The notes under the pieces: model-generated
What the model was told of the DNA's origin: nothing
The model's database searches: none
The model's input: the letters and a program-made list of their open reading frames with translations, nothing else
Shown here: piece by piece, positions 2,930 to 21,975 of the stretch
Layout: each line of letters begins with the position of its first letter
Position numbering within the stretch: the first letter of the stretch is position 1
Made by a program: the position numbers and the translations under genes
Source of the DNA: Klebsormidium nitens
Taxonomy: Eukaryota; Plantae; Klebsormidiophyceae
NCBI GenBank assembly: GCA_000708835.1
Contig: DF237250.1
Location: 1-64,000 of the forward strand
Direction: 5' to 3'
Length of the DNA stretch: 64,000 nucleotides

Positions 2930-3990
2930 TTACTTTCTCTCGTAAGTTAGCATCGCTGTTCCCCAGTCGTGGAGCATCCTATCGGCTAACTGCTTCCTTT
3001 CAGCAATAGAATGATCATTCGCGAAATGTTCGCTGATGAAAAGGTGACGAAGGTGGTTTTGATTTAATCGCTTTCCTTTTGGAAAAGTGATCGAGCCCAC
3101 AAATTTTGTAAGGTAATTGTCTGACATGGCTTCTGTGGTATTCCCCAGCCGAGACAGAACGAAACCTCGAGGAACTAGCTCTATTGATCGTTTTATGTAG
3201 TTGTTTAGGCGCTGTGAGAGTTCAAACTCTTTTGTCCCATACTTCTTGCTCGTCTTGTATGCCTTCAGTACAAGCAGGAACTCACCACTCTTGCTCTCAC
3301 GAAGGCAATTGCCGGTATCATGAAAGGCTGCTTTGGCCTCATCGCAATAAAAGGTTCCGTCCGCTTTCTGAAGAGGAAGACCGCTGAGATCCCTTCGCTT
3401 CGGTGGCTCGTGGATATTGAACGCAAGCAGTAGGTGCTGAAACACTATTTTTACTTCGTCTCTGCTCAGGTTTGATCCACCTTTATGATTTGGCATGATG
3501 CTCCTTCGTATCTGCCTGTTAAGCTCTTCCGCTTTGGCTTTCAACTCTTCCATAGAGATCCAATTGGCAGCTTCTTTCTCTGTGGCCTTCTGTTGGCCAA
3601 CCTTCTTCATCTGATCCAACTTCTTCTCTAAGAAGCTCTCAAAATACTTTTTATAAGTCTCCTCCCAACCCTTCGCGTGAGCACAAACCATTAACGGGGT
3701 GAGTTTATTCTTATAGGTGCCAGGGTTAGGGTACTTTGCGTTGAGTTTTTCAAGTATGATATCTACTGATTTGATCCAATCCAACGTGGATGGCAAAACC
3801 TTCTTGCCAGTCACCAGGGGATGGATTATTCGCACACTGTTGAGGTACTGTTGAATGGTTATTCAGCCCGTTTTCCATCCTTGAACAGGTTGCGCAAAGC
3901 TGCCTCACCTGATGATATCGTTCGCTGTGCATCCCCTTGACTGTTGGAAGTGAATTCTATGCTCGATTGAACGGAAGCTTCTGAGTCCAT
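2930..3990 (-). CDS. Tyrosine recombinase/integrase of the viral/PLV-like type, with one frameshift at ~3862
   Basis: PPKRRD (Arg), YKTSKKYG (Lys), NHLRHLFIS (xxLRH), LADRMLHD (His), MLTYERK (Tyr). An ATG at 3990 gives 43 codons that join ITIQQYLNSVRIIHP by a -1 shift. Confidence 0.85.
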
Positions 3991-4711
3991 GACTACCTTA
4001 TACTACAGAGGCCTATAATAATTCTAAGATTAAAACGAGGCGCCTTCTTGAGATGCGTCCCCTAGGAAATCCTGTTCTAGAACTCTTGGCTGCCCGGAGC
4101 GGATACCCTGGAAAAGATGTATCGACCATTGCCTCATTTGTCCTTACCACCTCAGGTGGCCTTTCCAAATTCCTACCTTCGCTGCTGAACGTGGGTAAGA
4201 CATGGGCTGCATATCCATGAAATTTGCCCTTTTGTCTCGATTCTGGAATTCAAAGACTTCAGATAGAAACACAAGCGGCTAAGATGCACCACCGTTTGAA
4301 TTCCAGATTCAGAGACAGGATCGTCAATCTTCCGCTGTAATCCAGAATTCAAATTCCAAGGCGGCAACTTTTTCCAGTCAGTGGTCATTTTTGACAAAAA
4401 CTCCCAGAAAGTTTTGCTCCCGGGGTCCCAGATTAAGTCCTAATTCGCGCGAAATCGGGACTCCCCCTTCTAGAATGGTGACGGAGGCCATTCATCTTTC
4501 AGAGTGCTCCATGTCGGGGACACGTTGATCAGAGAGGGGCAGTTTTCGTCAATCGGCTGTCAAATTTTGCCAGGTCCACGAGCCGACCAAAGTGCTTTAG
4601 GGGGGGCGACTTCTGAAGCAGGCAGCATGATGCACTGTGCATGGTTTTTATCTGATCTTACATTCATACAGCCGGTCCATGGATAATGCATGCTCATAAC
4701 GGAGCTTTAAG

Positions 4712-5272
4712 GTGCTGCTTGCACTCGACCACAATCAATCAGATGCTTCGATCCTCCTTGAAGACACTCGGCTGGAAATCGATGCTGAAAAAGGTCGTGT
4801 ATCACAGGCTGGCACACGCGCTGGAAGCCAGCTATTTAGGGCGCTTAAATCTGACGGTGCAGCTAAAGCACCCTGCACTGTCTATGTACTGCTGAGGGAA
4901 ACGACTAGAGGCTCATTGAAGAAGCATTTCGGATATGGAGTGTATATCTCTCTGGTGAAGAAGTCCGACAGGCCGCTCGGACTTCCGTTCCAAGGTACGT
5001 TTTCATCATCAGCAACCAAATTACCGGTCAAAGAGCTTCTTGAGATGCACGCCTCCGCAGAGTCGAAGCCAAAGAAGAAGCAACAGAGCACAAAGAAATG
5101 CAAAGCTGTGAGCAAAGCTACGAAGCAGAAATCAAAGGGCCATCCAAAATCAACTACTAATAAAGGCAAGGCGAAGCGATCAGCTACTACGGGCAACTCA
5201 GAAGCCACTGGAAAATCTCAGAGCAAGGGAATGACGCTCAAATGTGTTGCAGTCGAAAGCGACGGGGATTGA
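4712..5272 (+). CDS. Hypothetical protein with Lys-rich C-terminal tail
   Basis: 186-aa ORF within the island; no family recognised; start codon non-ATG. Confidence 0.3.
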   Translation: MLLALDHNQSDASILLEDTRLEIDAEKGRVSQAGTRAGSQLFRALKSDGAAKAPCTVYVLLRETTRGSLKKHFGYGVYISLVKKSDRPLGLPFQGTFSSSATKLPVKELLEMHASAESKPKKKQQSTKKCKAVSKATKQKSKGHPKSTTNKGKAKRSATTGNSEATGKSQSKGMTLKCVAVESDGD

Positions 5273-5319
5273 GAGACGAAGGCCATGCTAGATTTATCTT
5301 TCCTCTCTGATACAAAAAG

Positions 5320-5667
5320 ATGGAGAGAGGTCATACGTACTACGTGCCAAAGCAGCCACGAGGGTTATATAGTTTGCTTCCGTTTATCGACGAGATCGAG
5401 AGCTTTCCACCCTTTCGCTATGAAGGCATCGTGGATAAAGGCCTCAGAAGTCCAGTGGACATGGATTTCCTACGGATGGGCGTTTTGCTTTTACTTCACC
5501 AACTCTGTAACGAAGACCTCGTTGTGTCAGAAGACGACGTCAAGGCCATAATCTCAGCAGGTGTTTCGTACGGTGAATGTGCAGGGTATTCCGAGAAGGA
5601 GGGAGAGCTTCTATTGTCAATCGCCAAGGGGGTACTCAAGGTCTGCAAGGATGCCGAAGACGATTGA
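5320..5667 (+). CDS. Hypothetical acidic protein (115 aa)
   Basis: ATG-initiated, protein-like composition, co-oriented with neighbouring small ORFs, AT-rich spacers on both sides. Confidence 0.45.
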   Translation: MERGHTYYVPKQPRGLYSLLPFIDEIESFPPFRYEGIVDKGLRSPVDMDFLRMGVLLLLHQLCNEDLVVSEDDVKAIISAGVSYGECAGYSEKEGELLLSIAKGVLKVCKDAEDD

Positions 5668-5727
5668 AATTTGCGTTGATCTGTTGGAAAAAAATTAATG
5701 AGAGTATAACAGAACACTTACAACAGG

Positions 5728-6144
5728 GTGGAGTCGACCAGCAGCACTGAGATAACAATCACTCGTCTTGTCCCTTGTAACCTTTGCGGAAAGAAGCATC
5801 GTATCATTCAAAATGCACTGTTTCCAAACGACTCGGAAATTCCTCTATCGTCCGAGGGCGTGCCTCTGTGCAGATTGGTCCAATTGAACAGGCAAAATCG
5901 CTATAGACGTGACAGACAGTGTGTGCTCAAGAACAAGAGTCTCTGGTATCAGAAACATAAGCAGGCTATCTTGCTACAATTAGCTGCCAAGCGTCTAAGG
6001 AGTGGAAGGACTCGGCGACCTCATCCAAAGACCATCTCGAAGTTGAAGGAAGCAGGCGTCGAGTTTGATTCTAACAATAGAATTCTTACCGCCACGTCAG
6101 AGTCAACGGCAGCCGTTGACGAGCTAAAAGCTTCGAACCCTTAG
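5728..6144 (+). CDS. Small basic hypothetical protein with CxxC (CNLC); paralogue-like to ORF 1-282
   Basis: RYRRDRQCVLKNKSLWYQKHKQAILLQLAAKRLRSGRTRRPHPKTISKLKEAG aligns by eye with the 1-282 product. Confidence 0.45.
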   Translation: MESTSSTEITITRLVPCNLCGKKHRIIQNALFPNDSEIPLSSEGVPLCRLVQLNRQNRYRRDRQCVLKNKSLWYQKHKQAILLQLAAKRLRSGRTRRPHPKTISKLKEAGVEFDSNNRILTATSESTAAVDELKASNP

Positions 6145-6254
6145 CGAAGCTCAGGCTTCTAAAACGGGGATGGATTGAGACTCGTACAAGTGTATGTTTG
6201 CCGGAAGCTGCCATGCCAGTCTATCAATGCAGGCCGTTGCATTATGAATCTGCC

Positions 6255-6555
6255 TTCGTTAGACAGCACGGACAGTAAAGACGGATATCTCAAGATCTAT
6301 GGAATAAGCTGTTCTAACGGTCAGAGACATGCCATGATGCGATGCTCATGTTTGTCTGTGAGTGTGGGCCTTCACACAGAGGTTTGACTCGATAGACAGC
6401 ACGGACAGTGAAGACGGATATCTCAGGATCTATGGAATAAGCTGTTCTAATGGGCAGAGAAATGCCATGATGCTGGCAACCCAGTTGTTTGTCCGTTAGT
6501 GTAGGCTTTCACACAGAGTTTTGACTTGATAAACGTACGGACAGTGAAGACGGAG
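6255..6555 (+). repeat. Imperfect tandem repeat, ~133-bp unit x ~2.3, each unit beginning with the triple GACAG motif
   Basis: GACAGCACGGACAGT(A/G)AAGACGGATATCTCA(A/G)GATCTATGGAATAAGCTGTTCTAA at 6262 and 6395; degenerate third start at 6531. Confidence 0.9.
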
Positions 6556-9500
6556 TTTTCGAAGGAAAGTTAGGGAGATAAACACTTGTCTGCCATACGA
6601 TTTCTAGTCAAGGATACTCGCAAAAAGCCGCTGGATCAATGGGTGCGTTCAAGTCCTCTTGTCAATCAATGACCCTGCTTACCACTCTATCGTTCCAATC
6701 TACTATGTTCCGTTGGGTTATTCATTCAGTCTCCATCCTCGATAGCCCCTGATCTGATGGCCTGCGTCTACAAGTCTCGATTCGGATGGCTTTCCTGGAC
6801 CTTCCATGCCATGGGCTCTGCAACTCTTGGCTAAATCCTGAGTAGTGCGCATGGGGGGAGCTCCAGTATCCTCGAATCTGACGCCGTCAACTAGCCTATT
6901 CGGATTGTTGTAAGCCGCCATCAGAGACTCCGACGTCTCAAATGCTTTAATGTCGATGGTACCCTCGTTTTTCAGAAAAGCTGCGAACGGATCGTTTGAC
7001 TGCTCCCAGGACTCCATGTACCTTTTGCTAGTTTCTGGCATGTCAAGTAGCCTCCTCCCGTTCTGGTACCAGTCCTTTGCTCCTATCACCAGGAATACCA
7101 GCAGCTTCTCGACCTCTGCCATCAAAATGCTTTCGAGCCCATCATCTCTGACCCCATGAAGTGGGTTTCTGGGATTGTACCCCGCCTCCTCGGGGTAGAA
7201 GAAGCGCATTGGAAAGACCAGGGTAAGCAGACGGCGCTTCAGCGCAATGGTCCACCTCTTTGCACGCGGCGGGTAGTTGGTGCAGAGAATGTGCTGCAGC
7301 CAAAAAAGCCAGGAAAGAGAGACTTAGCTCGTAAACCGGCACCTCGGGTCTTGTCGAGTTTTCAGCGGAAGTCCAAGCGTTAGTTGACAGGGTAACTGTC
7401 CACCAAGGTAAGCATGCTTCTACGAATCTAGCTTCAAAGACAGCGCAGACAGCAAACACAGACTTCTCAACACTCTCGTAGAATCCGAATGAAATGGCAC
7501 GCATTTTCGTCTCCAAGGAAGAGCTCGAGCAGACGTCTCGAGCAGATTCTGTAAAAAAAGCCCCAAACAGCGGTGTTGTCTATCAAGTGCGGACCTTCAC
7601 TTGCAAACTGTACTTCACAGACACCATGGACAGCAAAGACGGAGATTTCAAAAGAAGTCAGAAGATGAATGGATGTCTGCCCGTCAGATTAGTGCTTTAT
7701 TACTCACCAGTTGTGTCGTTTCAAACGTGACGTAGTCGCGGTAAAGCGCTCTGCTCGTGATGGTTGCCTCTCCGGTGAGCCGTTTCAAGTTGCTCTCCGC
7801 AAACTCGTCAGTTTCTTCTGACTCCAAACAAACAGCCATCCGAACCCCTTGCAGTCCTTGCGCAGATCAAAAAGAGAAGTGCTTTTAGAATTCTGCTGCA
7901 AGATCCGCATACAAAGCAGCTCGCCCTTTTCAAAAAAGATGAAGCTCTATGGTCTAGCAATGCAATTACGAATCAGCACAGCTATACCTTGCATCAGAAG
8001 GCACCTCAGACGTTGTCTAGAACTTCTTACCTGCTTCGTCCGGGCTGGCGGATCCCTTACTGGGCGGCCGCTGCCCCTTCGAGGTCACCAGCATATCCTT
8101 TGACACATCCTTGTAGAACGGACCGATTAGGCGCTTCAAGAGCGTCAACAAGAGGCTCTTTCCAGCGCCGCCCTCCCCGATCATGATGAGCATGACCTGG
8201 TTGGAGATGTGACCCGTGATGCCGTAGCCTAGAATGCGCTGAAGATAGGCTAGAGCTTCTGGGGTGTGCATGATCTCCCTCAGGAACTCGCCCATTCGAC
8301 CTAACGGCGTGTGGACCCCAGTCGAAGGCCACCTGTACCCCAACATGAACGACCACAGGAACTGCAAAAGTAGAGTGTCGGGTGTCAGACTGCCTATCGA
8401 ATTTTATCCCTCTTTCTTCTTTTCACTTCAGTCGATGCGCTGGTTGAAGCACAGCTTTGCGCACTTTCTGAAGCGCTTGAAACATACAACGGAGTTGAAG
8501 TTTACGGTTAAAAGCACGCTTGCGGAGGCCCAGGCGGCCTGATCTTGGAAAGTTGGCTACCAGTTAGATACACGAAGTACTCAACTCCGAATGAATGACT
8601 CTAAAAGAAAGACTCAAGTGAGCCGCTCTCTACCCTCATTGAGATCGTCTCGCTCCTGCCTTTCGAACTTTTGGCCCAAGCAAAGGGAGCTTTTTCATTG
8701 CAGTACGCTTCGACTGCAAGCTCACCTTGGGATGGTGCGGTACTAACTCGGCACTCGGCAGGAGGATGACGCCGTTCAGCAAGGGAAGAGCGTCTCTGTT
8801 GGAGTTGAGCAGCTTCTCGAACCCCGCATCCAGGCAATAGCCTTTCAGGGTCGTCATGATGTTGGACATCCTTGCGTTCCAACTAAAGTTGGTCAGCTTT
8901 TCTGTCTTCTTCTTCTTTCTCTTCGGGGTCCGTTCCTCGCTGCCATCATCCTCCTCGCTCTCGTCTTGCTCAATGGCAGCCCCAGTCTCCTTTTGGTACG
9001 CAGCGCTGATCTTGTTGAGTTCTCCACGGCACACCTTCTGAGCCTCCCGCCCACCTGGGTCTGCCATCCACACCGACCCTGTCCAATAGTACCACTTCTC
9101 GTTGGAGTAGACGAGCTTGTGGCCGGTGTAGGTTTGCAGGCGATCGATGATCTGAGCGCCGCCTTCATCACCTGCATAGATTGCTGTGAGTTAGCACACG
9201 CTGGCACGGAATGAGAATCCAGTCTAGCCGTTTTAGATTGCAAAGATTCATGTGTTGTGCAGATTGCTTGTGCACAATTACCACCTTTGCAGACCCCTTT
9301 TTACGCCTGAATCAAGTATCGTTTGACCCATCGAAGACCAAATAAGGCACGAGAATATGAAACCGAAGCGAAAAGCTCTGTCTTTACTGTCCGCACTGTC
9401 CATGAAGAGGACTCTATGTTAAAAGATTCGCTTGACGGACAGAATGGCTGTCAGTGCAGGGTAGGCGTGAGATCTTGATAAAAGAGATCAGGTGGTCAGA

Positions 9501-12451
9501 GAGCAGGCAGTCCAAGAAAAAAGCTTCGTATGCTTGAGAAGTGAAGAGCTGAGTGGAGTGTTTTAAGCTGGCAAAGGCCCCAAGCCCCTCTTATTTCCAT
9601 ATTTGAGTCAGTAATCTTTTCGGACAGCTGATTGAAATAGGTTCTTGGACCTTTACCCTTGAAACCTCACCTGCTGCTATCGAGAGGTTCTCCCGTAGAA
9701 ACGAAAGGGGCAACAGCTGTCGGTCCTCGTACAGTCGATCCCGCTCGCTGTTCAACGGTTCTGCATCCGAAAACGCAGCCGCGACAGGGAAGGGAAGCCG
9801 TCCGAGCTTCTTGTTTCTGCGCCCCTCGCCCTTGCACCGCTCGCTGTGGCACACATACGTGATCTCCGTTCCTCTCCTAAAGAGGCCGAACTTGTTGCTG
9901 CGGTGTGCCTGCTCTCCTGCCTTGAGGTACGGGCAAGTCGCCCGGCCCCCAGGACCGTTCTCGAAGTGATACATCACAGCTCCTGAACCTGCAATCGTGC
10001 TCAGTTCTGGCTTGCGAAAGACAGAACTATTGTCCCCGTAGCTGCTGAGCATGCCCCGCATGATCTCGACGACTTGGTGTTGCAGAACTGGATCCGCAAG
10101 ATCGGGCGGATTCACCGAAGCGGGCGCGCACGTAATCCCAGCCCCTGCCGCAGCTGCTTTCCCAGCTCCTGGACGGCTTTTTGACGCCCCGGCTGCTTTC
10201 GAAGAAGCCCGCTCGTTCAGGATCTCTATGAACCATCCAGGGAGGGGAGGCAGAGCATCTACAGCTGGTAGGTCCCCTCCGCCTGCGACAGTGTACCGCG
10301 CAACCTCCTCGCCCCGCTGATAGGAAGACGGGGGGGACGCAATCATGCCACTCGAGCTCACGCCTCGCATATCACCCCCCACTTTCTTCAACGTTTCCTT
10401 CCCCGTTTTCGGGTCCGGGATCCTGAGCTCGAACTTCGCAAAGTGCGTTGGTGTGCCTGCCTCTTAATCCCGCGTCCACGCTTCGTTGATGCGAGAAGTA
10501 GAGATGGACACCCCCACTGCCGGTGCGCACTCGCGGCCCCGTGAACGCGCCGTGCTCGCTCTCCCACTCAGCCAGCTGCTCCATGCCCCCGTCTTGAAGA
10601 TCGAAATCCAACACGAGAACGCCAGAAGGCGCTGTGTTGATCAGCAGGGGATTGTCGCGGGGGTCGAAGTATGCTGAGCTGAGGCAGTTGGCGAGCGTAG
10701 AATCTTGCCACTTCTTGGGTGGTAACATGGCCTTCTTGCCCGTCTTAGTGTTGAAACTGGTGGATGCTGAGAAAACGACGTAACCCCTCTTGACCATGGC
10801 CCGAGCTGCAGTCTCCTGCACAGTATAAAACTTTCACTTTTGAGCAGCCAGTCCAAAACTTTGTCCGCGCTGTCCGCACTGTCCATGAAGAGGACTTTGT
10901 GTTACGATGGCTTCGCTTGACCGACAGAGCGCGTGATGGATGCAATCTTTCAGAGCAGACCATTCAGTCGGAGAGCAGGCGGTCAAAGTCAAAGCTTTTT
11001 CTCTTTGCACGAGAAGTGAAAATAACTGTCTACGCTGTCCGCACTGTCCATGAAGGGGAATCGCTTATAGAAGACACAATCCATAGACAGCACCGATGTC
11101 CAACGTAAGTCCAGGCGTTGGTGGACACACTTACTGTTCACCAAGAGAAGCATGCTTCTTGCGAACTTGCCTTCAAAAACAGCGCAGATGCCAAAGACAG
11201 ACTTCTCAAACTTTCGCAAAAATCTCACAGAAGGATGCACCAACATCGTTATTGTCAGTTGAAATCAACGTCTCTGAAAGGTGGAGCTCCTTGAGGATTT
11301 GTTAGAATGACTCACCATTGGGTATACTCTGGTCTCTCCTTTCGTTTCAAGGCGCGCATTGGACCAACTCAAGCCCGAGGTCTGTTCCCCGTCCTCTTTG
11401 AACGGCTCGTCATTAGCACCTTTGCAGTCCTCCCCTGATGCTGATGGCCGCGCGAGCTCTCCCGAACCCTGCAAAGAAGTCAGAAGAAGTGACAAATCAG
11501 AACTACTGAAAAGCTCTGTCTATGCTGTCCACACTGTCCATGAAGAGGACTCTGTGTTAGATGGCCTCTCTTAACAGACAAGCATTCTGTCAGCGCGCGT
11601 GATGGATGCAGTCTTCCAGAGCAGACCAGGCAGTCAGAATCAAAAGTTGTCTTATGCACGAGAAGTGAGAAAACTCTGTCTTTACTGTCCGTGCTGTCCA
11701 TCATGGGAAATCACTTATAGAACACGCATTTGCATAGACATCACTGCTGTCATCTGGCTGAATCTTCAAGGGGCAACAGATTGCATTGAGCACAAGCCCA
11801 GGTAGAAAATGTCTCACTTAGCAGCCAGGGCTTGCGCTCTTGCCGATGCTTCCCTGGGCCGTGTTTCCCTGCAGAGACTTCCTTGCGGCTCACTGGTTGA
11901 GCCATCGGCCCCTGCTTCATTGTGTTTGCGTTTTCTGCCCCGTTCGTGTTGGATGGAAGGGGCGCTAATCTACACAGGACAATATGGAGCGTCTCAGATC
12001 AGGGGATCCTCTGTGCAGGCAATGGTCCTGCCTTGAACGTCCATTCGTTGGAGACATCATGCTGTCTCTGGAGACAAAAGCTTGACAAGGGATTCGTCTC
12101 GAAGGACAGCTTGGACAGCAAAGACAGGATCTGTGAGAACCTGATGACTGGTGTTTTTGTAATCTGCGAATAATTGTCAGGCCCATACTCATCAGATTGG
12201 GTCACTCACTGGTGCAAGTTCACCAAGGAAATTGGTCCTACAGTGACGCATCCAATCTACTCGAGTGTTTCTTCTTCTGACTTTTCTTCAAGACTCTGTC
12301 TTTACTGTCCGTGCTGTCTATGGAGCAAATCCCTGTGCGAAAACTTAAATTGATAGACAACATATCGGCATGGCATCATGACATCTTTATGCCAAAAAGA
12401 ACAGGTTATTCCATGGGTCTCAAAAGACCTGTCTTCACTGTCCATGTGGTC
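6262..12451. repeat. Dispersed family of triple GACAG-N4-GACAG-N4-GAC(A/G)G motifs (14 copies, both strands)
   Basis: Plus strand: 6262, 6395, 6531 (degenerate), 7439, 7620, 11178 (degenerate), 12105. Minus strand (CTGTC x3): 9378, 10861, 11026, 11516, 11676, 12296, 12429. Confidence 0.88.
6718..11468 (-). CDS. Spliced Prim-Pol + Zn-finger + D5_N + P4/D5-type SF3 primase-helicase (about 930 aa modelled), one +1 frameshift at ~10390-10463; further 5' exons possible
   Basis: Exons 11468-11316, 10815-9671, 9171-8726, 8361-8031, 7856-7708, 7293-6718 join through GT-AG introns with matching phases (0,1,0,1,0). Motifs: VLVLDFD, TGSGGVHLYF, DMRG, CPY..HRSN..VCHSERC, WYYWTGSVW, LLNGV..PHHPK|FLWS, GEGGAGKS, AVCLE, KRLTGEATITSRALY, LCTN, KRRLL. 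Confidence 0.85.
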
Positions 12452-13083
12452 TATGAAGGCCAATCCTATGCGAACGGATTCTCTAACCAGAACATACTCG
12501 AAGGAGAAGGACAAGGTGCAGGCAGCAGCTTTACCTTGTCATCATCCAGCTCAGCTCGAAGGGCTGCCCTCCTCTCCTCGAGAGCACTGGTGTAGAGTTG
12601 CTGTCTCGCATCCTTACCATATAAGCTCTCCATCTGCAAAACACACCAGAAATGCATCGTCAAGAACGTGACCTACCTGCACCACAGCTTTCAATGTTTA
12701 GGTTGAACAGGTTGCAACCTAGACAGAACTTCCACTCGACCACTGAAAACACCACCATCATTGACAAGCAGCCAGTGTTCTTCTAATGCTCATGACAACT
12801 TGCATCAGCGAGTGACCAGTATATTGGCCACGCGCTCACTTTGTGGGACTCTCATGAGCAAGGAAACCCCTTGACAGGGCGCCAAATCTTGATCGAACAC
12901 CTGTCTGCTGCTCAGCTAGGGTGCCCTCTGCTGGATAACATCGGGCTGCAGGGCTGCATTGGCGACGCAGGATTATGCGTGTGCTGCTCCTGAGACGTGG
13001 GTTGGACGCCTGAGCTAGCGGCTTTTGAGGGGCTAAGAAAGGATTGTGCTGGATGAATGATCGAACGAGGGGGCAGGAGCTCC

Positions 13084-13378
13084 TTTTATAGGTCCCTTTC
13101 AACCAACTGCCATGAACCAAAGTCTTCTCTGGAAGCCCTGAGTCAGACTCTCCTCCAGCGATTCCGAAGCGGTTGAGCGATTCCGAAGCCATTCGTAGCT
13201 CTCTCTGAAGAGGGGAGCTGACTCAAGACGAGTGCCAACTCAGATGGTTGAGCGCCGGTTCCGAAGCTTGCTGTCTCTCAATAGGAGACCTGACTCAGGC
13301 TTCTGAGCAGATTAGGGTTTAGCCGGCATGGCACGTGGTCGAAAAGGCACGTGGTCAATGCCTTACAGTTGCGCGAAA
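13084..13378 (-). promoter_or_regulatory. Candidate promoter upstream of the spliced primase-helicase: TATA, telo-box, G-boxes, E2F site
   Basis: Minus strand: TATAAAA 13090-13084, AAACCCTA 13320-13313, TTTCGCGC 13378-13371; CACGTG twice at ~13332 and ~13348. Confidence 0.45.
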
Positions 13379-14315
13379 ATTTTTGGCTGGTTTCTTTCCC
13401 TCCACGGTAACCCCAGAAAGTCCCTAACCCAGACCAGTTCGAGGGGCAGCTTGGCCAGGGGGGCTGGTTTCTCGGCCAGGGGGACACGTGTCGCGCGGAT
13501 ATTGGCTGAGCTTTAGCCAGCAATCTCTTGGTTAGAGGGTCCCGGCTCCCGGTCCGGTTCGGCTGACATGGCGCCCCCTGATTGGCTCCAATTTGATGCC
13601 GAACTTTCTTGGGCTTGTAGGGGCCGCAGCTGCAGTCCGAATTCAGCAAGAGTTAGCAGTCCCAAGGGGCTGACCTGTCGCTCTCTCAGTGGCCAAACTT
13701 CCATGCCGAGCTTCATATGGCTCGCTGGCCGAGCTTAGCTCGGGAGTAGAGCCACCTAAAATAACAACATATAATGACACCACAACGTTGGACAAGCCAA
13801 CTCAACCCTTGCGTGCACATGTGTTAAAGCCTATAATGATACTACAGTGTGCAAAGCAGGACATCAAAGGATGAGCCTCCCCAAGACACAGATCGTTTCA
13901 TCAATGTTGTCATGAGTACATTATATCAAAGACATGGGGCGAGGTAGGTCATGATAAGTCGAGTAGGCGGCCACTAAGTCTCCAATCAGCTGTTCCGTAT
14001 AGCATCTCGATGTCACACGGCAGTGGACCGAGTGCGACGCAGCATAGCTTAGCATGGCATGCTCACTTTGGAGAGTGGTTGCATATGCACCATAGAGGCT
14101 CGGTTTCTATATTGATTGACGCTCCAGGAAATGATGCGTATGCATGCCACTATAAGTCGCTGAATTATGAGACCACAGCAAAGCAACACATGTGTCAAGA
14201 GAATGCCTATGCCGTAGAGACTATTGAGACCTCGATAGACACCCAAGTTAAAAGCTCAGCTCTTGCTTCCTCATGTTCAGCCGCTTGATATGAGACCAAA
14301 CTTTTAGGTATCCTT

Positions 14316-17300
14316 TTAGGTATCCAATAAGGTCGGGTGGAATATCTTGCACACCGCCTGAAACTGTTCCATCGTGACGTTGGTGCTATAGGTTCTCACC
14401 TCCCTAGAGACCCCAAAAGGATAGAATAGGTCGTGCAAGCCTCGCACAAAGGACTGCAAAGCGCCTGGAATGTGCCCCAACTCTTTCAGAGATGGACCCA
14501 ACATGCTACCTCTGCGGACAAACTGGGCCTTCTCAAGATTGTTGATATCCATCTCATGTCTTCCATGGAGCTTGCCCCCGCTACATCTGTCTAACATTGA
14601 TATGAACAACCCCTCTAACATGCTGCTCTCCGTGTGAGGCTTGCCGCATAGGATAGACAGTGGGGCATATACTAGGGTGCCTGTAATCTGCTGCACACTC
14701 CCTGTGGGGCTGGTTGGTTGGTCTCTTGGATCTGTGTTTGGTGGAAGAAGCTGTAACAATGAGCAAACGATAGTTCTTAGGAAAAAGTAGCCGAAGGCTA
14801 GATGCAACGAAGTCCATGGACGCGAAGTCCTGCAGTACAGCTTCCACATCAGCTATTCAATCGTTAGGGACTCACAAAGCTATTGATATTGACGTAGTCA
14901 TCCAGTCTGTAACAGACATCTTGACAGTCAGACTTGCTGCTACAGCATATTGAAGAAGACCTCGCACCTACCTTCCCAGCCGAGAAGTCAAACAAAACAC
15001 CGCGGCCCTCGTAAACGCCAATGTTGTTTGGTGTCACGTCGCGCTGCAGCACGCGCGCCTCAATGCACCCTCGGATGGCACGCGCAACGTCGGAAGTGAC
15101 CTGAGACAAGGGGAAGCAAGATCACGAAAGTGGGGAAGTTGCGTGAACAGTGACAGTAGCTATGGTACTTGGTTACCTTTAGATGGAACCTCTACATGAT
15201 AGGGCTTCGTTCAAAAAGGGGCTCGATCATATAAAACGAATGTTAGACCACCCCTGGATGCTTGCAGAGAGCTTCTTAATCTTGTACTTAGGTAGCTTTG
15301 TGGTAGTCAAGAAACCGCCCTACAACATAGTCTAGACCAGAGCGGTTGGTAAGCGTGTAACACAGAGGACTTTGGAAGGTCTGCTTCTCGTCAAGGAAGC
15401 TAACAGCTTCATAAGCCTCCTATGTTGTCCAAGATGCTAGGAGTGAAGAGGTTCCGTGCTTACCTGAGACAGCAATTGGAGGCCAAGTTCTGACGTGACT
15501 GGTTGAGCAAACGGATGCAGCAGGACCGCGTGCCACTTCGATGACTGGTACTTTATTACATCCGCAGCGAGGAGAGTCACAACTCGTGGGACTTGGTGTT
15601 TGGTCAGCTCTGAGAGGAGCAAGGTCTGGGCACAAAAAGCAAAACCTCATTCATGGCATTTGTGTTCCACTAAGATTCAAGAATGAAGAGGAGTCTGCAC
15701 AAAGCAGCCGAAAGTCTTCTGAGGACTAAAGCAGCACTGAAGGATGAGAAAAGGAACACCCAGTAAGAGAGTGCTTTGGGACTGTCAGTAAACGAATCCG
15801 CAAATGACCATTTTGTATGGACCAATAGAAAGTAAAATTTGTTCCCTTCAAGGTTGGCAGAATAACTACGCATATGGCCAGCAAAAGAAGCTCAGCACAA
15901 TCTTCGTTTGAAGCATGTGTTATCAACAAATCAAGCAACATGAAGAACGTGGTAGATCTTGCAAGGTCTGAACTACACAACAGAACCAACCACGTATGCC
16001 TTCCAGCTATTAACATAGATCACATAAGTAGGCAGATTCGACTGACAACCAGAGATTGCTCACCTCACGCTCAGATTGATTGAGTTTCAGAATGCACCGA
16101 CCCAGCCCAGCAATCCGCGCTTGGAACACCAGACTACCCTGGCCCTGAGGCGCTGTGCCTCTGTGCACCCGAGGCGCCCTCCCTCTGTCCAACTGGGGCG
16201 CTGTGCCTCTGTGCAGCAGCTCGAGCTTTTCTATCTTCTTGTGCCCAAGCTTTTTGACAGACGGCACGGTTAGTTGCTGAAAGCCAAGTGCTTTCTTTCC
16301 GCTAGCGAGCACCCTTAGCACCCAAATGAAGCCTGGAGACTCTTCACTTACACTGAAAGGATTGGCCCAGTCCTTTGCACTGAGAGCACCTCGAGATGAT
16401 GGCGGGAGAAAAATGCCACCTCTACTGAGTTCATTGTTATCCCAATAGTCACCATATGAGATCGCTCTGGCTGCTGATCTAGCGTACTCCGGACTCTTTT
16501 TGTTTGCTGGCCGAAGCTGTGGTGCGTTTCAGGAATCGAGTGCCCCAGTTTCGCTTCGACGAAGGACACCGCTTGGGTCCAGGCAATAATTGGCGAAGCG
16601 AGAAGACTGCAGTCGGGTTTGCCTCGGGGGTTCTGAAATTCATTGCTTGAGCTATGGGTATCTTCTAGCACCATCTCGCACTTTGCAGCCTTCGCCATGG
16701 CTCCTAAGATGGTCATGAGAACAGGCTGCATGTGCTTTTCTTCTGACAGTCCTGGTTCTTTAGCTTCCGGAATTGCATCAGCAAGCGAGAGGCCTGGAAG
16801 ACCTGTCGGAAGCTTCAACTCTGGGTTTGGCTGATCATCTTCATTGTCCACGTCAACGGCCTGACCTGCTTCGTCGCGTCTCCGCTTTTCGCCAGCAGAC
16901 AGTTGCTCTGCATTTTCGCAAGAAGAGGAGGAGGAGGACATTGTTGAAAAGCATTTTCTCAACGATGCAAATAACGATGAGGACCAGAGTTGAACAAGCA
17001 ACTCATGAAAAATCCCTAAGAGCTTACCCAGGAGCATCCAGCTGCTTCTTCGCTGCTTGCAAGACAGCCTAGCATTGTAAGCATCCAGAATTGTAAACAA
17101 TTGCAATCCTCAAGTTGCAAAGAGACTGCGACAGTGCAATGGAACGTTGTTAATAGGTCAACGAGCCATCACTTACTTTGCCTCTTATAGACCGCACCCT
17201 CAGCTACTGCAGTGGGGAAGTTTTTCAAGACTTCGTTGACGGCAGTCTTCACCATCTTCTTGGATACATGAGCGAGGCACCGCATCTCCTGAACCACCTC

Positions 17301-18811
17301 CGCAAGCTGATAATGCATCTGTACAAAGTAAACGCAGTTTGAACACAGAGAGCTCTTCCGTCATAATCAACTTTAGAAGGAGGCTGAAAGCACCTCATAG
17401 TTAGAGTGGCTTTTAAAGAGAGCTTCGGTCCGCATTGCTACCGACTCAAATGGCAGAGCTGTAGAAACAGCATAAGCAGACAGTCGGCTTGCAAACCAGA
17501 AGCTAGAACAGGCCTGGTCAAGTATCGACTTTGCGGGAGTAGAGCAGCAATAGTGAAACAACAACAGATCATGCAGTGCCTGCAAAGCACGCCAAAACCT
17601 GCAATAAGGATCCAGAGCCCCATGGGCAAACATTTGCAATCTGAGATACTTCTTGAAGCAGGAACAACATGGCCAACTTGATGAAAGGACACGCTGGCCA
17701 CACCTGTCCAACATCTGTCTCGATCCAGGTTGTTTGCATACTTTTGTTGTTGCGCATTTCCAGCTGCCGCATCCGTAAAGTGTGGGACTCGACCATTTTC
17801 TGCAGGGACTCAACCTGTTTCTGCACAGCCTGGGTAGCACCGACTCCAAGCTGAGCGGCTTCAGCGGCGCCTGCAAATGTCCACCAAACGAGCAACTAAC
17901 AAGAGAGCTCGACCATATTCAGTATCATGGACAATGATCCGACCTGAACATTCAGAAACGGCTGCAAGTGCTGGAAGCCGTCTTTTGGGCTTGCAAACCC
18001 AATACATAGTAAGAAACACTCCATGCCTAGCATGCACTACTGTCCTCGGCATAGTTGGCGAAGGGAGCAACTATATCACCTGCCAACACCTTCTGATCAG
18101 CAAAGTCCCCTCTCATGCCATCATCTCCAAGCCTCCCCGCCGCTACATGCTGACCAGCAACACCAGGAAGCTCGTTTCCGTCCTTTCCAAATTGATGAAA
18201 ACCTCTAGTCCTGATATCCAAACAGACTAGCCTACTAGCTAGCCTAATCATCTCACAGAAGGAGCTGCTTACCTGCAGCTTTATCGAAAATTGCATTCCA
18301 GCCCAACAACCAGTTCCCTGGCCCTGGATACTCGCGTTCAAGTCGGTCAAGAAGCTTAGAGCGGCCATCATCAGTCATCCCTCTCCAGCGTTCCAAGGTG
18401 AGCTGCTGCTTTGCCAGGTGGTTCAGCAGGTCGGAGTCAATGTCGGAGTCGACTTCCTGCCAGCTCTTCTTCAAAGCCAGCTCTTTCTCCTGTAGTTGGG
18501 CGACAACAAAGATGTGCACCACAATGTGCAGCCCACTCTTTAGCGGCATGGACACTAATAAGAAATGCCACAAAGCTGCTCCCTGATGCCTGAATACAAC
18601 CAGCGCTGACCAGTCCCATCCTGAACTGCGGGGATTCCCTTGTCCAGACTCACCTCCTGCGAAGTGGGCCCAGGGTTGCTTTCCACGCCACCCCTAAGGA
18701 GAAGAGTCGCTGCACATAAGGAGACCACAAACAGGTGTTGAAGGTCTGACGCAGCTTTCATCCTGAACCGATCAGGGGCTGAAAGTCTGACGCAGCTTTC
18801 ATCCTGCACCG
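14316..18811 (-). pseudogene. Multi-exon Crinkler-like REase-domain + fungal-type (FunK1-like) protein kinase, one frameshift at ~16365; N-terminal 2A-like peptide
   Basis: Phase-compatible exons at ~18.8-18.65, 18.49-18.27, 17.87-17.69, 17.31-17.17 and 16.9-16.06 kb, then kinase exons at ~15.59-15.47, 15.11-14.97 and 14.75-14.32 kb. KPD..W....FVEAK..GQ..R..QQPER (REase-like); VLQRDVTPNNI, LFDFS, TGTLVYA..HT..LEGLF (kinase). Confidence 0.72.
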
Positions 18812-19834
18812 ATGAGCAACCCCCAAGCAAGTCAAGGGAACCATCACGGCAGGTCAAGACCGAAGTGGTCCACAGCCAATTGCATACTGAACCCGAGTGC
18901 TCTTTAAATGCTTGCAGACCCAGAGCCACGATCCAAGTTCCTTACCTATAAGTGACCGGCTCTGGGGCATGGACACCCAGTCCGTCATACTGTCGGACTG
19001 CTGCCAAGCTGCAAACGGTGGTGCGCTGGGTGCATCTGCCCAAAACCTCTCACTTTGGGATCCACTCCAGACTGCAACCATAAAGAGTGACATTAAGTTG
19101 CCGTCACTATTGATCGAAGTGTAGAATGCACAGCAGAAGAGGGTATAACGCATAAGAGGCGTGACAAAGAATGGGCTGCCCTTAAATGTGCATAAGAGGA
19201 CAACCGACTGAGTCAAATTGCGCCACTCGCTCACCTGATGTCCATTTTGCAGCAGGTGAGGTTCCGTCCAGGTTACGCAGCTCCTCTTCTAAACTCCTCT
19301 CCTTTGCTCTCAGGTGGCGCATCTCTGTATCCTCTGCCCATGCTGCAAGAGTATACAAAAGCATGTAAATTCTTGACAGTCTTTTCAAAGGCTCCTTGCT
19401 GACCACTGAAGAAGCAGCTATGAGCTTTGCATGAGACCTAGACCGTGTCAACAGCAGGCTCCCCAAATGCCCTCACCTGCGCGGTCTCGGTCAACTCGAA
19501 AGAAACCATTGGAAGTGGCATGAGCTCTGCACGAGTACTTCACGCTGCCCCCCTCCTTGCTTCCCCTCAGCCCGAAGTCTGCAGAGGCTCCGCATGCATG
19601 GCAGTGGAGACTGTGCAAGTCTGCAATGAAGAAGCGCAGAGGTTTGGTCATGAACCTGGAGCATAGATGTGAAAAGCATGCAAGACTTGGTGCGTGCCCC
19701 TTCCTTTTGCAAGTCATGTCTCTTTCTTCTGGCAGTGGGTTTGGAGGTTTGTGATTGACAGCAGGTATCAAGAATCAGCCTCATATCTTCTAAAGAAAAA
19801 GAAGTATGGTACGTCCCAGGGACAACCATGCCCG

Positions 19835-20413
19835 CTAAGACTCCTCAGAATCTTGTGATAAACTGCAGAGCCAGCCACCCTTCACCATTCTGACCCCACT
19901 ACCAAAAGTAGTGTTTTCGAACTTAATTCCTTTCATTATCTGAAGATTTCCTGGTACACATTGCAAGGCCAGCCCACCAGTCACCTTTCTATCTTGCAGC
20001 ACAGAGCATTCAAGCTTCTGCTCTGCCTCGGCCTCACAAGGTAAACCAATCAGAGAAGCCATGCACCAGAACTCACCTCTTTCTGCAGCTTTGCCAAGCG
20101 AATGTTCGAGGCCCTTCTTTGCTTTCTTCTTTACACTGCCAGACCCTTTGCAAGCACGGCCCCCTGTGAACATCCGAGCCGCCCGTGCCTTGGTCTTCGG
20201 CGCCCTCGACTTCTGCCCCCGCCGCCTACGAGGGGCATCCTCGATGTTGCACTTAGCATTCACAGCAGCGATGCGTGCCTCCTGCTGCTCAGCACTGATG
20301 GCGATTCTCTCCCTGTACTCAGCGGCGCGTGCATGACGAGCCTCCTGACAGACTCTGTGATCGGACTTGGACCGGCCATGAGGCCGGCCTCTAGCCATGA
20401 TGAGACAGTGCAA
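19835..20413 (-). CDS. Basic hypothetical ORF, possibly an upstream exon of the Crinkler-like kinase locus
   Basis: 192-aa ORF on the same strand; further exon-like segments at ~19.2-19.35 kb; junctions to the 2A exon not resolved. Confidence 0.3.
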   Translation of the reverse strand: MHCLIMARGRPHGRSKSDHRVCQEARHARAAEYRERIAISAEQQEARIAAVNAKCNIEDAPRRRRGQKSRAPKTKARAARMFTGGRACKGSGSVKKKAKKGLEHSLGKAAERGEFWCMASLIGLPCEAEAEQKLECSVLQDRKVTGGLALQCVPGNLQIMKGIKFENTTFGSGVRMVKGGWLCSLSQDSEES

Positions 20414-21975
20414 GGACCAGCTTTCCTGCCCCTACAAAACCAAGAGGAATATAGGAGACTGAATAGTAATTTGTCTCAACAAACATCCAGATGCACAATC
20501 ACGAGGCGTTTGCACCTTTACTACGTATGCAACTCTCACCAGTGCAGACTTACAAACACCAGAGGAACAACCCTTAAAACGGCATCCACCTTCTTCAGAC
20601 TGAGTCGCTCAGTTGCGTTCTTCAAGCTGGTCCAAAAGCGGCAGAGCCAACCTCTGCCTGACACATTGTTCTATATTATGAGGGCACATAGAGGCAACCA
20701 GATAAGCAACTTACGTTCACAAGATCCTCAGACGCGCTTCAGAGATGCGCCACTACAGCAGTCCGCAGAATGCCAATTCCTGTGCCAACTTGCCGGGCAA
20801 CCTGAAAGCCCTGAGCCACACCAAGCTGCCCTGCAGCTCCCTAAAGCCCGGCCGCTTTTAGCTCTGTCAACCCTTAGCAGGAGGTCTAAACGCTGACCGC
20901 TTAAAAATACCAGAGGTAACCATTGAAACTTTGGAGACTCAGCTGGAACAAATCAATCTCAAACGACAACGTTCTTTTATCGAAGTCCTGCGATGGGAAC
21001 GGTCTGCTTGGTAACGGTATCCCCTGTCCCTGACTGGGCTCGAACCTCAAGCGAATTGAAGGAAGTTCCGGAATATTTGTTCGGGGGGACACGTGTCAGG
21101 TTCTCACTGGTCACAATTATGCCAACAATCACTTGGTTAGTTGCTTGGTCAGGGCCAGGGTCGGGTTCACATTGGACTTTTTGCCCTAATTCGGTCTGCC
21201 ATGATTCGCAATTGGAAGTACCCATGCTGACGTTTTAGCAGTTTCGGATTACGATAGCCAGACTGGGTTCACATTGCAGTTGGGTCCGTCGAAATACGTC
21301 TCGTAATTCAAAACTCTCGTCTGGAGCCATGTGACTGACCACGTGAATCGTATTGAGTACACTATGTACACAAAACCGTCAGCAAAGGCTGAGGCGTGAC
21401 GATATCCAACCTGTACTTATCGTGATTGGGCTATCCAGATTCCAAACCGCGTTTCGATAGCCTCCCGGATTTGAGTAGGTTTTCGACTTCGATAACTTTT
21501 GAAGTTCGAAGAATTGACCGTTAGCTCGCCGACTCTGGCGGGGTGACGCCGAGTGACGCAAGTCTAGCTATCGAATCACGATAAAAGTTTTGAGAAAGTC
21601 CAATGTGAACCCGACCCAGGCTGCGCAATACCGTACGTAGACCCATCTGCATGTTGCTAGGTAGTCGGAGCTTTCCTGCCAAGATCGCCAATGCATCATT
21701 CAAGTGGCTCATTCAAGTGGCTCATGAGCAGGACGATAAAAAGTCAGCTGCCCGAGTTGTGCATCTTGGCGGCAGGCCCTGGGAAATTTGACGCCCGCAA
21801 CTTCAAGGAGCTCTTGCAAAGCTCACCGGTTGCCCGCCATGGTAGCGGAGGGTGGTGCTCAAGGTCCCCTCGAATCTCCAGTTGCTGGCTTTTATTTGCC
21901 AGCCGTAGGAGAATTTATTTGATTTTGAGGGACTTAGGTGTTTCACTACCGCAACAGATTTAGAAAGACGTCATC

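Follow-up and report, generated by a model that had tools for sequence, protein, structure and literature searches.

A spliced primase-helicase gene of Klebsormidium nitens carries repeated GACAG cassettes, candidate origin-type binding sites, in its introns and 3′ flank

A short DNA cassette built on the word GACAG occurs 14 times at a spliced primase-helicase gene, KFL_003010010, in Klebsormidium nitens contig DF237250.1 (GCA_000708835.1), always in introns or in the 3′ flank. The stretch analysed comprises positions 1-64,000 of this contig; it is called the window here, and all coordinates refer to it. We lean slightly towards the explanation that the cassettes are origin-type binding sites for the helicase of this gene family itself, multiplied in the non-coding DNA of a virus-derived mobile gene. 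The observations behind it are the cassette, its confinement to non-coding DNA, the splicing of the gene, the presence of paralogs, boxes beside paralogous exons, and the geometry of similar words in phages.

The pattern GACAG-N4-GACAG-N4-GACRG, with at most one mismatch, had 11 matches in the 64 kb, all within 6262-12318, where the expected number was 0.01 (mean of 100 dinucleotide shuffles). The original prediction, made from the sequence, had listed 14 such boxes, and all of their coordinates and strands were correct when the sequence was re-checked; those at 6531, 11178 and 12429 are more degenerate than the other 11. It had noticed no box elsewhere in the window, and neither the pattern scan nor a profile of the 14 units found one. 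The profile recovers its own units by construction, and its best match outside them had an E of 0.66. Eleven boxes are located inside five of the eight introns, three are just past the 3′ end of the spliced contigs (6573) and none is in an exon; all 14 are non-coding. The predicted avoidance of exons holds against spliced contigs from two studies, not only against the gene model. The predicted placement in introns and flanks was right overall, but the boxes at 12105, 12296 and 12429 sit in the intron 11970-12534 and not in an upstream flank. Seven intronic boxes are in sense and four in antisense orientation to the gene, and the presence of both orientations in introns fits the binding of double-stranded DNA.

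Each box is part of a cassette of about 70 bp, in which the three GACAG words at a 9-bp period are accompanied by an inverted TGTC 41-43 bp upstream, a fourth site that the original prediction had overlooked. The consensus reads TGTC-Y-R-T-Y-A-A-G, a filler of about 22-24 bp, C-T-T-C-A-T-R and then the three words, in a nearly gap-free alignment. The inverted TGTC, which played no part in choosing the 14 copies, is exact in 11 of them and within one mismatch in all 14; the far side of the filler has only this one exact word. Compared pairwise, the copies have an identity of 0.88 over the three words and 0.86 over the inverted word; it drops to 0.58 for the N4 spacers, 0.42 for the filler and 0.30-0.31 beyond the cassette. 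The geometry of the cassette has outlasted its sequence. Words and spacing are conserved as had been predicted, but the N4 spacers do not vary freely: they follow YRYG and YRWA and are under constraint, and much of the pattern is explicable as CpG decay. The three cassettes of the 3′ flank each belong to one of three tandem repeats of 133-137 bp, of which 12264-12460 is an inverted copy (71-74% identity), and an inverted pair is found in the intron 11970-12534. Longer homologous blocks surround the copies (260 bp at 73%, 167 bp at 86% and 117 bp at 79%), the 260-bp block being common to two neighbouring introns. These shared blocks show that the cassette copies spread by local duplication and inversion. 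A hairpin model of the cassette was rejected, as all 14 units folded as DNA no better than shuffles (z -1.2 to +1.3).

The minus-strand transcript runs from 13278 to 6573 and has eight GT-AG introns in contigs of two runs from two studies, which are taken, not recorded, to be RNA; the same introns are not skipped in a DNA run. The exon stretch 8726-9169 matches, at 100% identity, K. nitens KFL_003010010, a gene with Prim-Pol (40 bits), D5_N (35.2 bits; cutoff 22.4) and superfamily 3 (SF3) helicase domains. DUF5906 scored 25.7 bits, just under its cutoff of 27.6, and reaches 39.8 in the paralog P0161, while TIGR01613 remained below its cutoff on single exons. A profile search matched C962R of African swine fever virus (ASFV) and poxvirus D5, and the KFL_003010010 protein had no Pox_D5 match in Pfam. 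With D5_N followed by an SF3 helicase with Walker A, the gene belongs to the D5/P4-type primase-helicases. One additional base close to 10464 shifts Prim-Pol out of the frame of a Cys/His-rich linker and the helicase, and the open helicase frame (10463-6721) has 764 aa. This base is present in both the DNA and the spliced contigs of this strain and absent from a paralog and from the allele of a second source, which has its own insertion at 10757 (low depth, possibly an error). An in-frame N-terminal primase is thus lacking in this copy and found in paralogs P0004, P0005, P0008, P0009 and P0190. Because the primase frame is lost, we propose that this copy may act as a helicase only or depend, as a non-autonomous member, on others in trans. 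The join 11818/11468 is also out of frame; since the following exon ends in an ATG that corresponds to the start of a paralog, the frame before it may be a short upstream open reading frame (ORF).

The C-terminus of the protein is predicted to be a winged helix of the RFX/P4 type. The last exon was modelled from an alignment of 136 sequences with a predicted local distance difference test (pLDDT) score of 86.5; a first model from five sequences (pLDDT 33.6) was unusable. In a VIA structure search, residues ~100-191 of this exon matched RFX5 (Z 7.2) and RFX-DBD (Z 7.0; root-mean-square deviation 2.9 over 74 of 76 residues), followed among the top five by ASFV PrimPol (Z 5.2), the origin-binding domain of phage P4 (1ka8; Z 4.8) and PriRep of SaPI5 (Z 4.7), a Staphylococcus aureus pathogenicity island (SaPI). 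In agreement with these fold matches, the predicted winged helix aligns in sequence with the C-termini of relatives.

The comparison with known replicons is close in part. The P4 alpha protein, which acts with ori1 and crr, has a DnaG-type primase, and P4 relies on a second cluster of iterons separate from ori, for which our literature search found no paper. The algal gene shares with it the D5/P4-type primase-helicase and a winged helix resembling the P4 origin-binding domain, and differs in having Prim-Pol, in its word and in being eukaryotic and spliced. The helicases of SaPI and of the staphylococcal cassette chromosome SCCmec bind penta- or hexamer iterons via their C-terminal domain, with the origin directly behind the gene (excerpts of PMC9371898 and PMC7581432). 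The algal locus resembles the SaPI ori/Rep, PriRep5 and SCCmec Cch2 origins in its short repeats of opposite direction (three direct and one inverted) directly behind a helicase gene and in its C-terminal winged helix, here predicted. The bacterial islands, however, have one origin, with 6-12 iterons around an AT-rich centre, whereas the algal locus, in a chromosome, has 14 four-word cassettes with a filler of 55% A+T, 11 of them in spliceosomal introns, as candidate sites known from sequence. Three cassettes are 165-500 bp past the stop codon, where SaPI and SCCmec origins lie, and the intronic position of the other 11 is atypical. Since an AT-rich centre with at least two iterons on each side is missing, we do not class the cassette as a SaPI/P4 iteron origin. 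The original reading of the boxes as iterons stands to the extent that it is supported by the fixed geometry with an inverted fourth site, by the same triple word behind phage primase-helicase genes, by the predicted winged helix and by boxes that travel with paralogs.

The family comprises 14 K. nitens gene models (at least 13 paralogs of KFL_003010010), two of which are adjacent and eight of which are on scaffolds shorter than 35 kb. The original prediction had noticed neither this family nor the frameshift in the primase of this copy. The predicted recognition-helix region differs among the K. nitens subfamilies, of which those of KFL_010680030 and KFL_008030065 are distant. Once this family and exon-sized metagenome proteins like it are set aside, the nearest relatives, which are non-algal, are unnamed metagenome proteins of ~30-33% identity, several with the same Prim-Pol and D5 layout, and protein-based locus searches found no relative of the gene in metagenome or viral contigs. 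When one whole-genome run was aligned at 80% likeness to a 1.46-kb stretch that contains five boxes, only 18 genomic contigs fell on it; more divergent copies could be missed at this threshold. Among the pieces listed were five foreign box-bearing contigs, recognised partly by matching depth values across tables, an indirect assignment; four of them also match exons of the gene and one is unplaced. Virus-like core genes and giant-virus D5 genes have been reported in the Klebsormidium genome (PMC5294986), and the available part of that report does not describe the 14-member spliced family or the repeats. The accessible literature, including the open portions of PMC5294986, PMC11244446 and PMC4642659 (subscription papers and supplements were outside the scope), likewise contained no description of the family or the motif.

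Similar word arrays are found in phages. The window-style triple pattern, scanned in IMG/VR viral contigs (91 of 103 candidate ORFs scanned), gave 32 viral loci, which form 24 independent groups. In five of the 24 groups the pattern follows a primase-helicase ORF at a distance of at most ~510 bp (two D5-type, DUF3987, VapE and Toprim-AAA_25), and in one more group just before one. A control triple of GCAAG, a pattern that differs in form, was behind a primase-helicase in 1 of 78 cases (p 0.003). In matched scans, 80 loci with flanks were scored per word, among at least 120 matches listed for each, and the ORFs scanned were those of at least 200 aa that end near the motif. A Pfam primase-helicase ended beside the triple at 7 of 80 loci for GACAG, 4 for GAGAC and 1 for GCAAG; five of the seven are D5/DUF5906-type, and the difference between GACAG and GCAAG has a p of 0.06 (0.03 after dereplication). 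A PHROG rescan, kept outside these counts and applied to the GACAG and GAGAC sets, added two helicases and none, respectively. The matched phage loci carry two-directional GACAG arrays, some with spacers identical to those of the window, and the single GCAAG case is likewise a two-directional array. When phages were chosen by protein, 6 of 14 had clear arrays behind the gene, all of other words. The array grammar is general for these replicons and the word varies by lineage. Arrays of words at a 9-bp period mark the ends of many phage primase-helicase genes and offer a simple way to find origins. Motif scans also gave 11 metagenome loci and nine loci in prokaryote genomes, one of the latter behind an AAA_25 helicase; none of the 11 metagenome and 32 viral loci matched window DNA by blastn.

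Several arrays deserve mention in their own right. Phages phiSP15-1, Nergal, yong1, P185, Wrath and CL2 (L417, L418, L422, L424, L425 and L427) have unannotated two-directional arrays of 8-11-bp period directly behind the primase gene, which are likely origins. Two back-to-back triple GACAG boxes with the exact spacers of the window are present in L037 (2481-2544) and L289, from a Desulfobulbaceae metagenome-assembled genome, at the 3′ end of a 578-aa ORF that has no Pfam or PHROG match and possibly encodes an unrecognised replication protein. Two-directional GACAG arrays, as candidate origins, also lie behind ORFs with no Pfam match in L123, L122 and L060, of which L060 matches the PHROG 62 helicase; they could flag new initiator families.

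If the cassettes are binding sites of the family's helicase, the winged helices of the hexamer would read the GACAG words, the back-to-back arrangement of words would load the helicase as at SaPI origins, and the Prim-Pol of an intact paralog would prime synthesis. Local extra replication would produce tandem and scattered cassette copies and spread the family. The gene would then belong to a self-copying element of a type so far undescribed in the chromosomes of eukaryotes. The three tandem cassettes behind the stop codon may be the ancestral origin; the intron copies would have arisen by local duplication and inversion and may serve as extra loading sites or as titration sites for copy control and self-regulation, with coding constraint keeping cassettes out of exons.

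A number of results weigh against this explanation. The filler differs from the AT-rich centre at which SaPI origins melt, the copies descend from one another by duplication and hence are not independent, and the locus is expressed yet broken in its primase. Fold Z-scores of 5-7 are middling by the search tool's own note, and the related winged helix of pRN1 gave no clear footprint (PMC2777425, in part). Among phages, the difference between GACAG and the GAGAC control (7/80 vs 4/80) is not significant (p 0.53), GACAG was the array word in none of the 14 phages chosen by protein, and no array was found in the one contig of giant-virus size that was examined for closer relatives; the resemblance to GACAG arrays of phages may be convergent. 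The locus showed no element ends, no target-site duplication and no empty site, and the paralog loci, among those listed, are known from short contig pieces only.

A wider proposal, which we offer tentatively and hold to be possible but rather doubtful, is that the family represents an undescribed class of capsid-less, intron-bearing mobile elements. Such an element would copy itself by a virus-derived primase-helicase on sequence-defined origins multiplied in its own introns, with recognition helix and origin word co-evolving by subfamily; it would be a phage-style replicon turned by domestication into a eukaryotic transposon, and a rare sequence-specific chromosomal origin of the plant lineage. 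If the sites fire, the element would be a self-amplifying eukaryotic one run by its own primase-helicase, with the carrying of origins as a new role for introns. In the literature found, no cognate origin is defined for the D5-type primase-helicases of Polinton-like or giant viruses, for which one paper proposes the terminal repeats. The locus offers a sharply defined candidate site of 70 bp, a candidate reader of 90 residues and at least 14 family members that differ in their recognition helices, which makes a direct binding test possible.

The cassettes could instead be sites for another protein, either a TGTC-reading host factor, presumably of the B3/ARF type, or a VANC-like anti-silencing factor encoded in another part of the element, that keeps the gene expressed and not replicated. 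This is the best of the alternatives, although we consider it unlikely. Splicing of the gene is seen in two studies, CpG is depleted in three of the introns with boxes (observed/expected 0.33, 0.46 and 0.59) and the filler is not AT-rich. VANC motifs show exactly the distribution seen here, being amplified by tandem repeats in introns, intergenic DNA and terminal non-coding parts of VANDAL transposons, a mobile element (PMC5735166, in the portion at hand). However, no VANC-like gene was seen near the locus: a Mutator transposase or VANC gene had no Pfam match among ORFs of 55 or more aa in 3.8-26 kb, where split exons could hide one. A general host site would be expected elsewhere in the 58 kb of host genes and is absent there. 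Unlike the VANDAL case, the candidate reader here is a replicative helicase encoded by the gene itself, with its own predicted origin-type DNA-binding domain, and the cassette has a fixed four-site geometry that matches phage origins.

A dead relic, in which one ancestral viral origin was copied by local duplication, inversion and gene conversion and is now in neutral decay, is somewhat less probable still. It would explain why the copies lie within longer homologous blocks, why words are decayed in three of the 14 and why the spacers show CpG decay, and it agrees with the broken primase frame in this copy and possibly in a second strain. Under neutral decay, however, the inverted word would not have stayed at 0.86, nor its distance constant to within 3 bp, as identity in the filler fell to 0.42. 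The conservation of words and distance relative to the filler shows selection at least through most of the divergence of the copies.

A MITE (miniature inverted-repeat transposable element) or satellite spread over the genome and unlinked to the primase gene is very unlikely to account for the cassettes. They do have inverted arms of ~12 bp, outside which two of the words lie, and occur in both orientations. But 14 copies are confined to 6.3 kb and none is in the other 58 kb, only 18 contigs fell on the five-box stretch, four of the five foreign box-bearing contigs listed also match exons, no target-site duplication flanking the cassettes was seen by eye and no stable hairpin was found. A high-copy MITE is therefore unlikely; a scattered family of diverged copies is possible. 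A common genome-wide MITE had been named as the finding that would overturn the original prediction, and the part of the genome data covered here speaks against one. A role of the boxes in RNA, as splicing enhancers or structures, is hardly credible: 11 of 14 are intronic and two are 45-47 bp from a splice acceptor, one of them kept there in a paralog, but four of the 11 intronic copies are antisense, three copies are outside the transcript, three introns splice with no box, and the units, folded as DNA, are no better than shuffles.

Table 1 Cassettes and exons of the spliced primase-helicase gene in the window.
Feature	Position	Strand	Remarks
Cassette 1	6218..6290	+	Box 6262-6284; first of three tandem repeats past the 3′ end of the gene, canonical origin position
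Cassette 2	6353..6423	+	TGTC at 6353, box 6395-6417; 3′ flank
Cassette 3	6490..6559	+	TGTC at 6490, box 6531-6553, first word decayed; 3′ flank
Last exon and 3′ untranslated region	6573..7293	-	Stop 6718-6720; end of SF3 helicase and predicted RFX/P4-type winged helix
Cassette 4	7397..7467	+	Box 7439-7461; intron 7294-7707
Cassette 5	7577..7648	+	Box 7620-7642; intron 7294-7707
Exon, SF3 helicase	7708..7856	-	
Exon, SF3 helicase with Walker A (GEGGAGKS)	8031..8361	-	Flanking introns 7857-8030 and 8362-8725 have no cassette
Exon, D5_N domain	8726..9171	-	
Cassette 6	9372..9441	-	Box 9378-9400; intron 9172-9670
Exon, Prim-Pol domain	9671..10815	-	One extra base near 10464
Cassette 7	10855..10926	-	Box 10861-10883; intron 10816-11315
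Cassette 8	11020..11089	-	Box 11026-11048; intron 10816-11315
Cassette 9	11135..11206	+	Box 11178-11200, decayed; intron 10816-11315
Exon ending in ATG that matches start of paralog KFL_013000030	11316..11468	-	
Cassette 10	11510..11580	-	Box 11516-11538; intron 11469-11817
Cassette 11	11670..11740	-	Box 11676-11698; intron 11469-11817
Exon	11818..11969	-	
Cassette 12	12063..12133	+	Box 12105-12127; intron 11970-12534
Cassette 13	12290..12359	-	Box 12296-12318; intron 11970-12534
Cassette 14	12423..12494	-	Box 12429-12451; intron 11970-12534; 133 bp from cassette 13
Exon starting with ATG (short upstream frame)	12535..12633	-	
First exon, as far as contigs reach	12840..13278	-	Intron 12634-12839 has no cassette

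The window also encodes a second, intronless Prim-Pol and SF3 (DUF5906) primase-helicase of a different subfamily (417-2901, + strand), with a frame change near 920-945 and no periodic triple word near it. The adjacent ORF 2933-3862 (- strand, 310 aa) has six unnamed relatives at 49-85%; we take its residue pattern to fit a tyrosine recombinase. It had no Pfam, PHROG, NCBIfam or PDB match, and a locus search for relatives in contigs was also empty. Together, the two genes resemble a Polinton-like end module. In Polinton-like virus end modules and mobile helicases, a primase-helicase is found beside a tyrosine recombinase, and repeats are proposed as the origin (PMC11296320). The window is similar in that the intronless gene and the recombinase-like ORF are 2.7-6 kb away from the spliced gene. 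It differs in the eight introns of the latter, and the available portion of PMC11296320 describes no iteron cassettes. Major and minor capsid proteins and a packaging ATPase had no Pfam, PHROG or NCBIfam match among ORFs scanned in 1-26 kb (the window starts inside a neighbouring repeat), and no terminal inverted repeats were found, only the inverted cassette blocks inside the gene.

The region 5200-6160 has ~2-3 related copies in the genome run, and unexplained short ORFs on the + strand occupy 4700-5272 and 5311-5667. A related contig of the second source joins this region to the last exon of the gene, and the region may belong to the same element. In both spliced runs, the contigs of a paralog at 8994-10593 are several-fold deeper than those of this copy; the depth of contigs measures expression poorly. 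The 5′ end and promoter region (13137-13760) is common to other transcribed loci (loose ends 13137 and 13212) and by eye contains several CCAAT boxes as well as repeats of TGAGTCA-like and CGRTTCCGAAGC words. Another gene that looks multi-exonic, at 14316-20896 (- strand), had no Pfam match; its ORF 14319-14852 is reminiscent of a decayed fungal-type kinase C-terminus, but this assignment had no Pfam support and was dropped. At the border to ordinary host genes, 21154-21621 carries 27-bp inverted repeats that are 96% complementary and 414 bp apart, a MITE-like arrangement.

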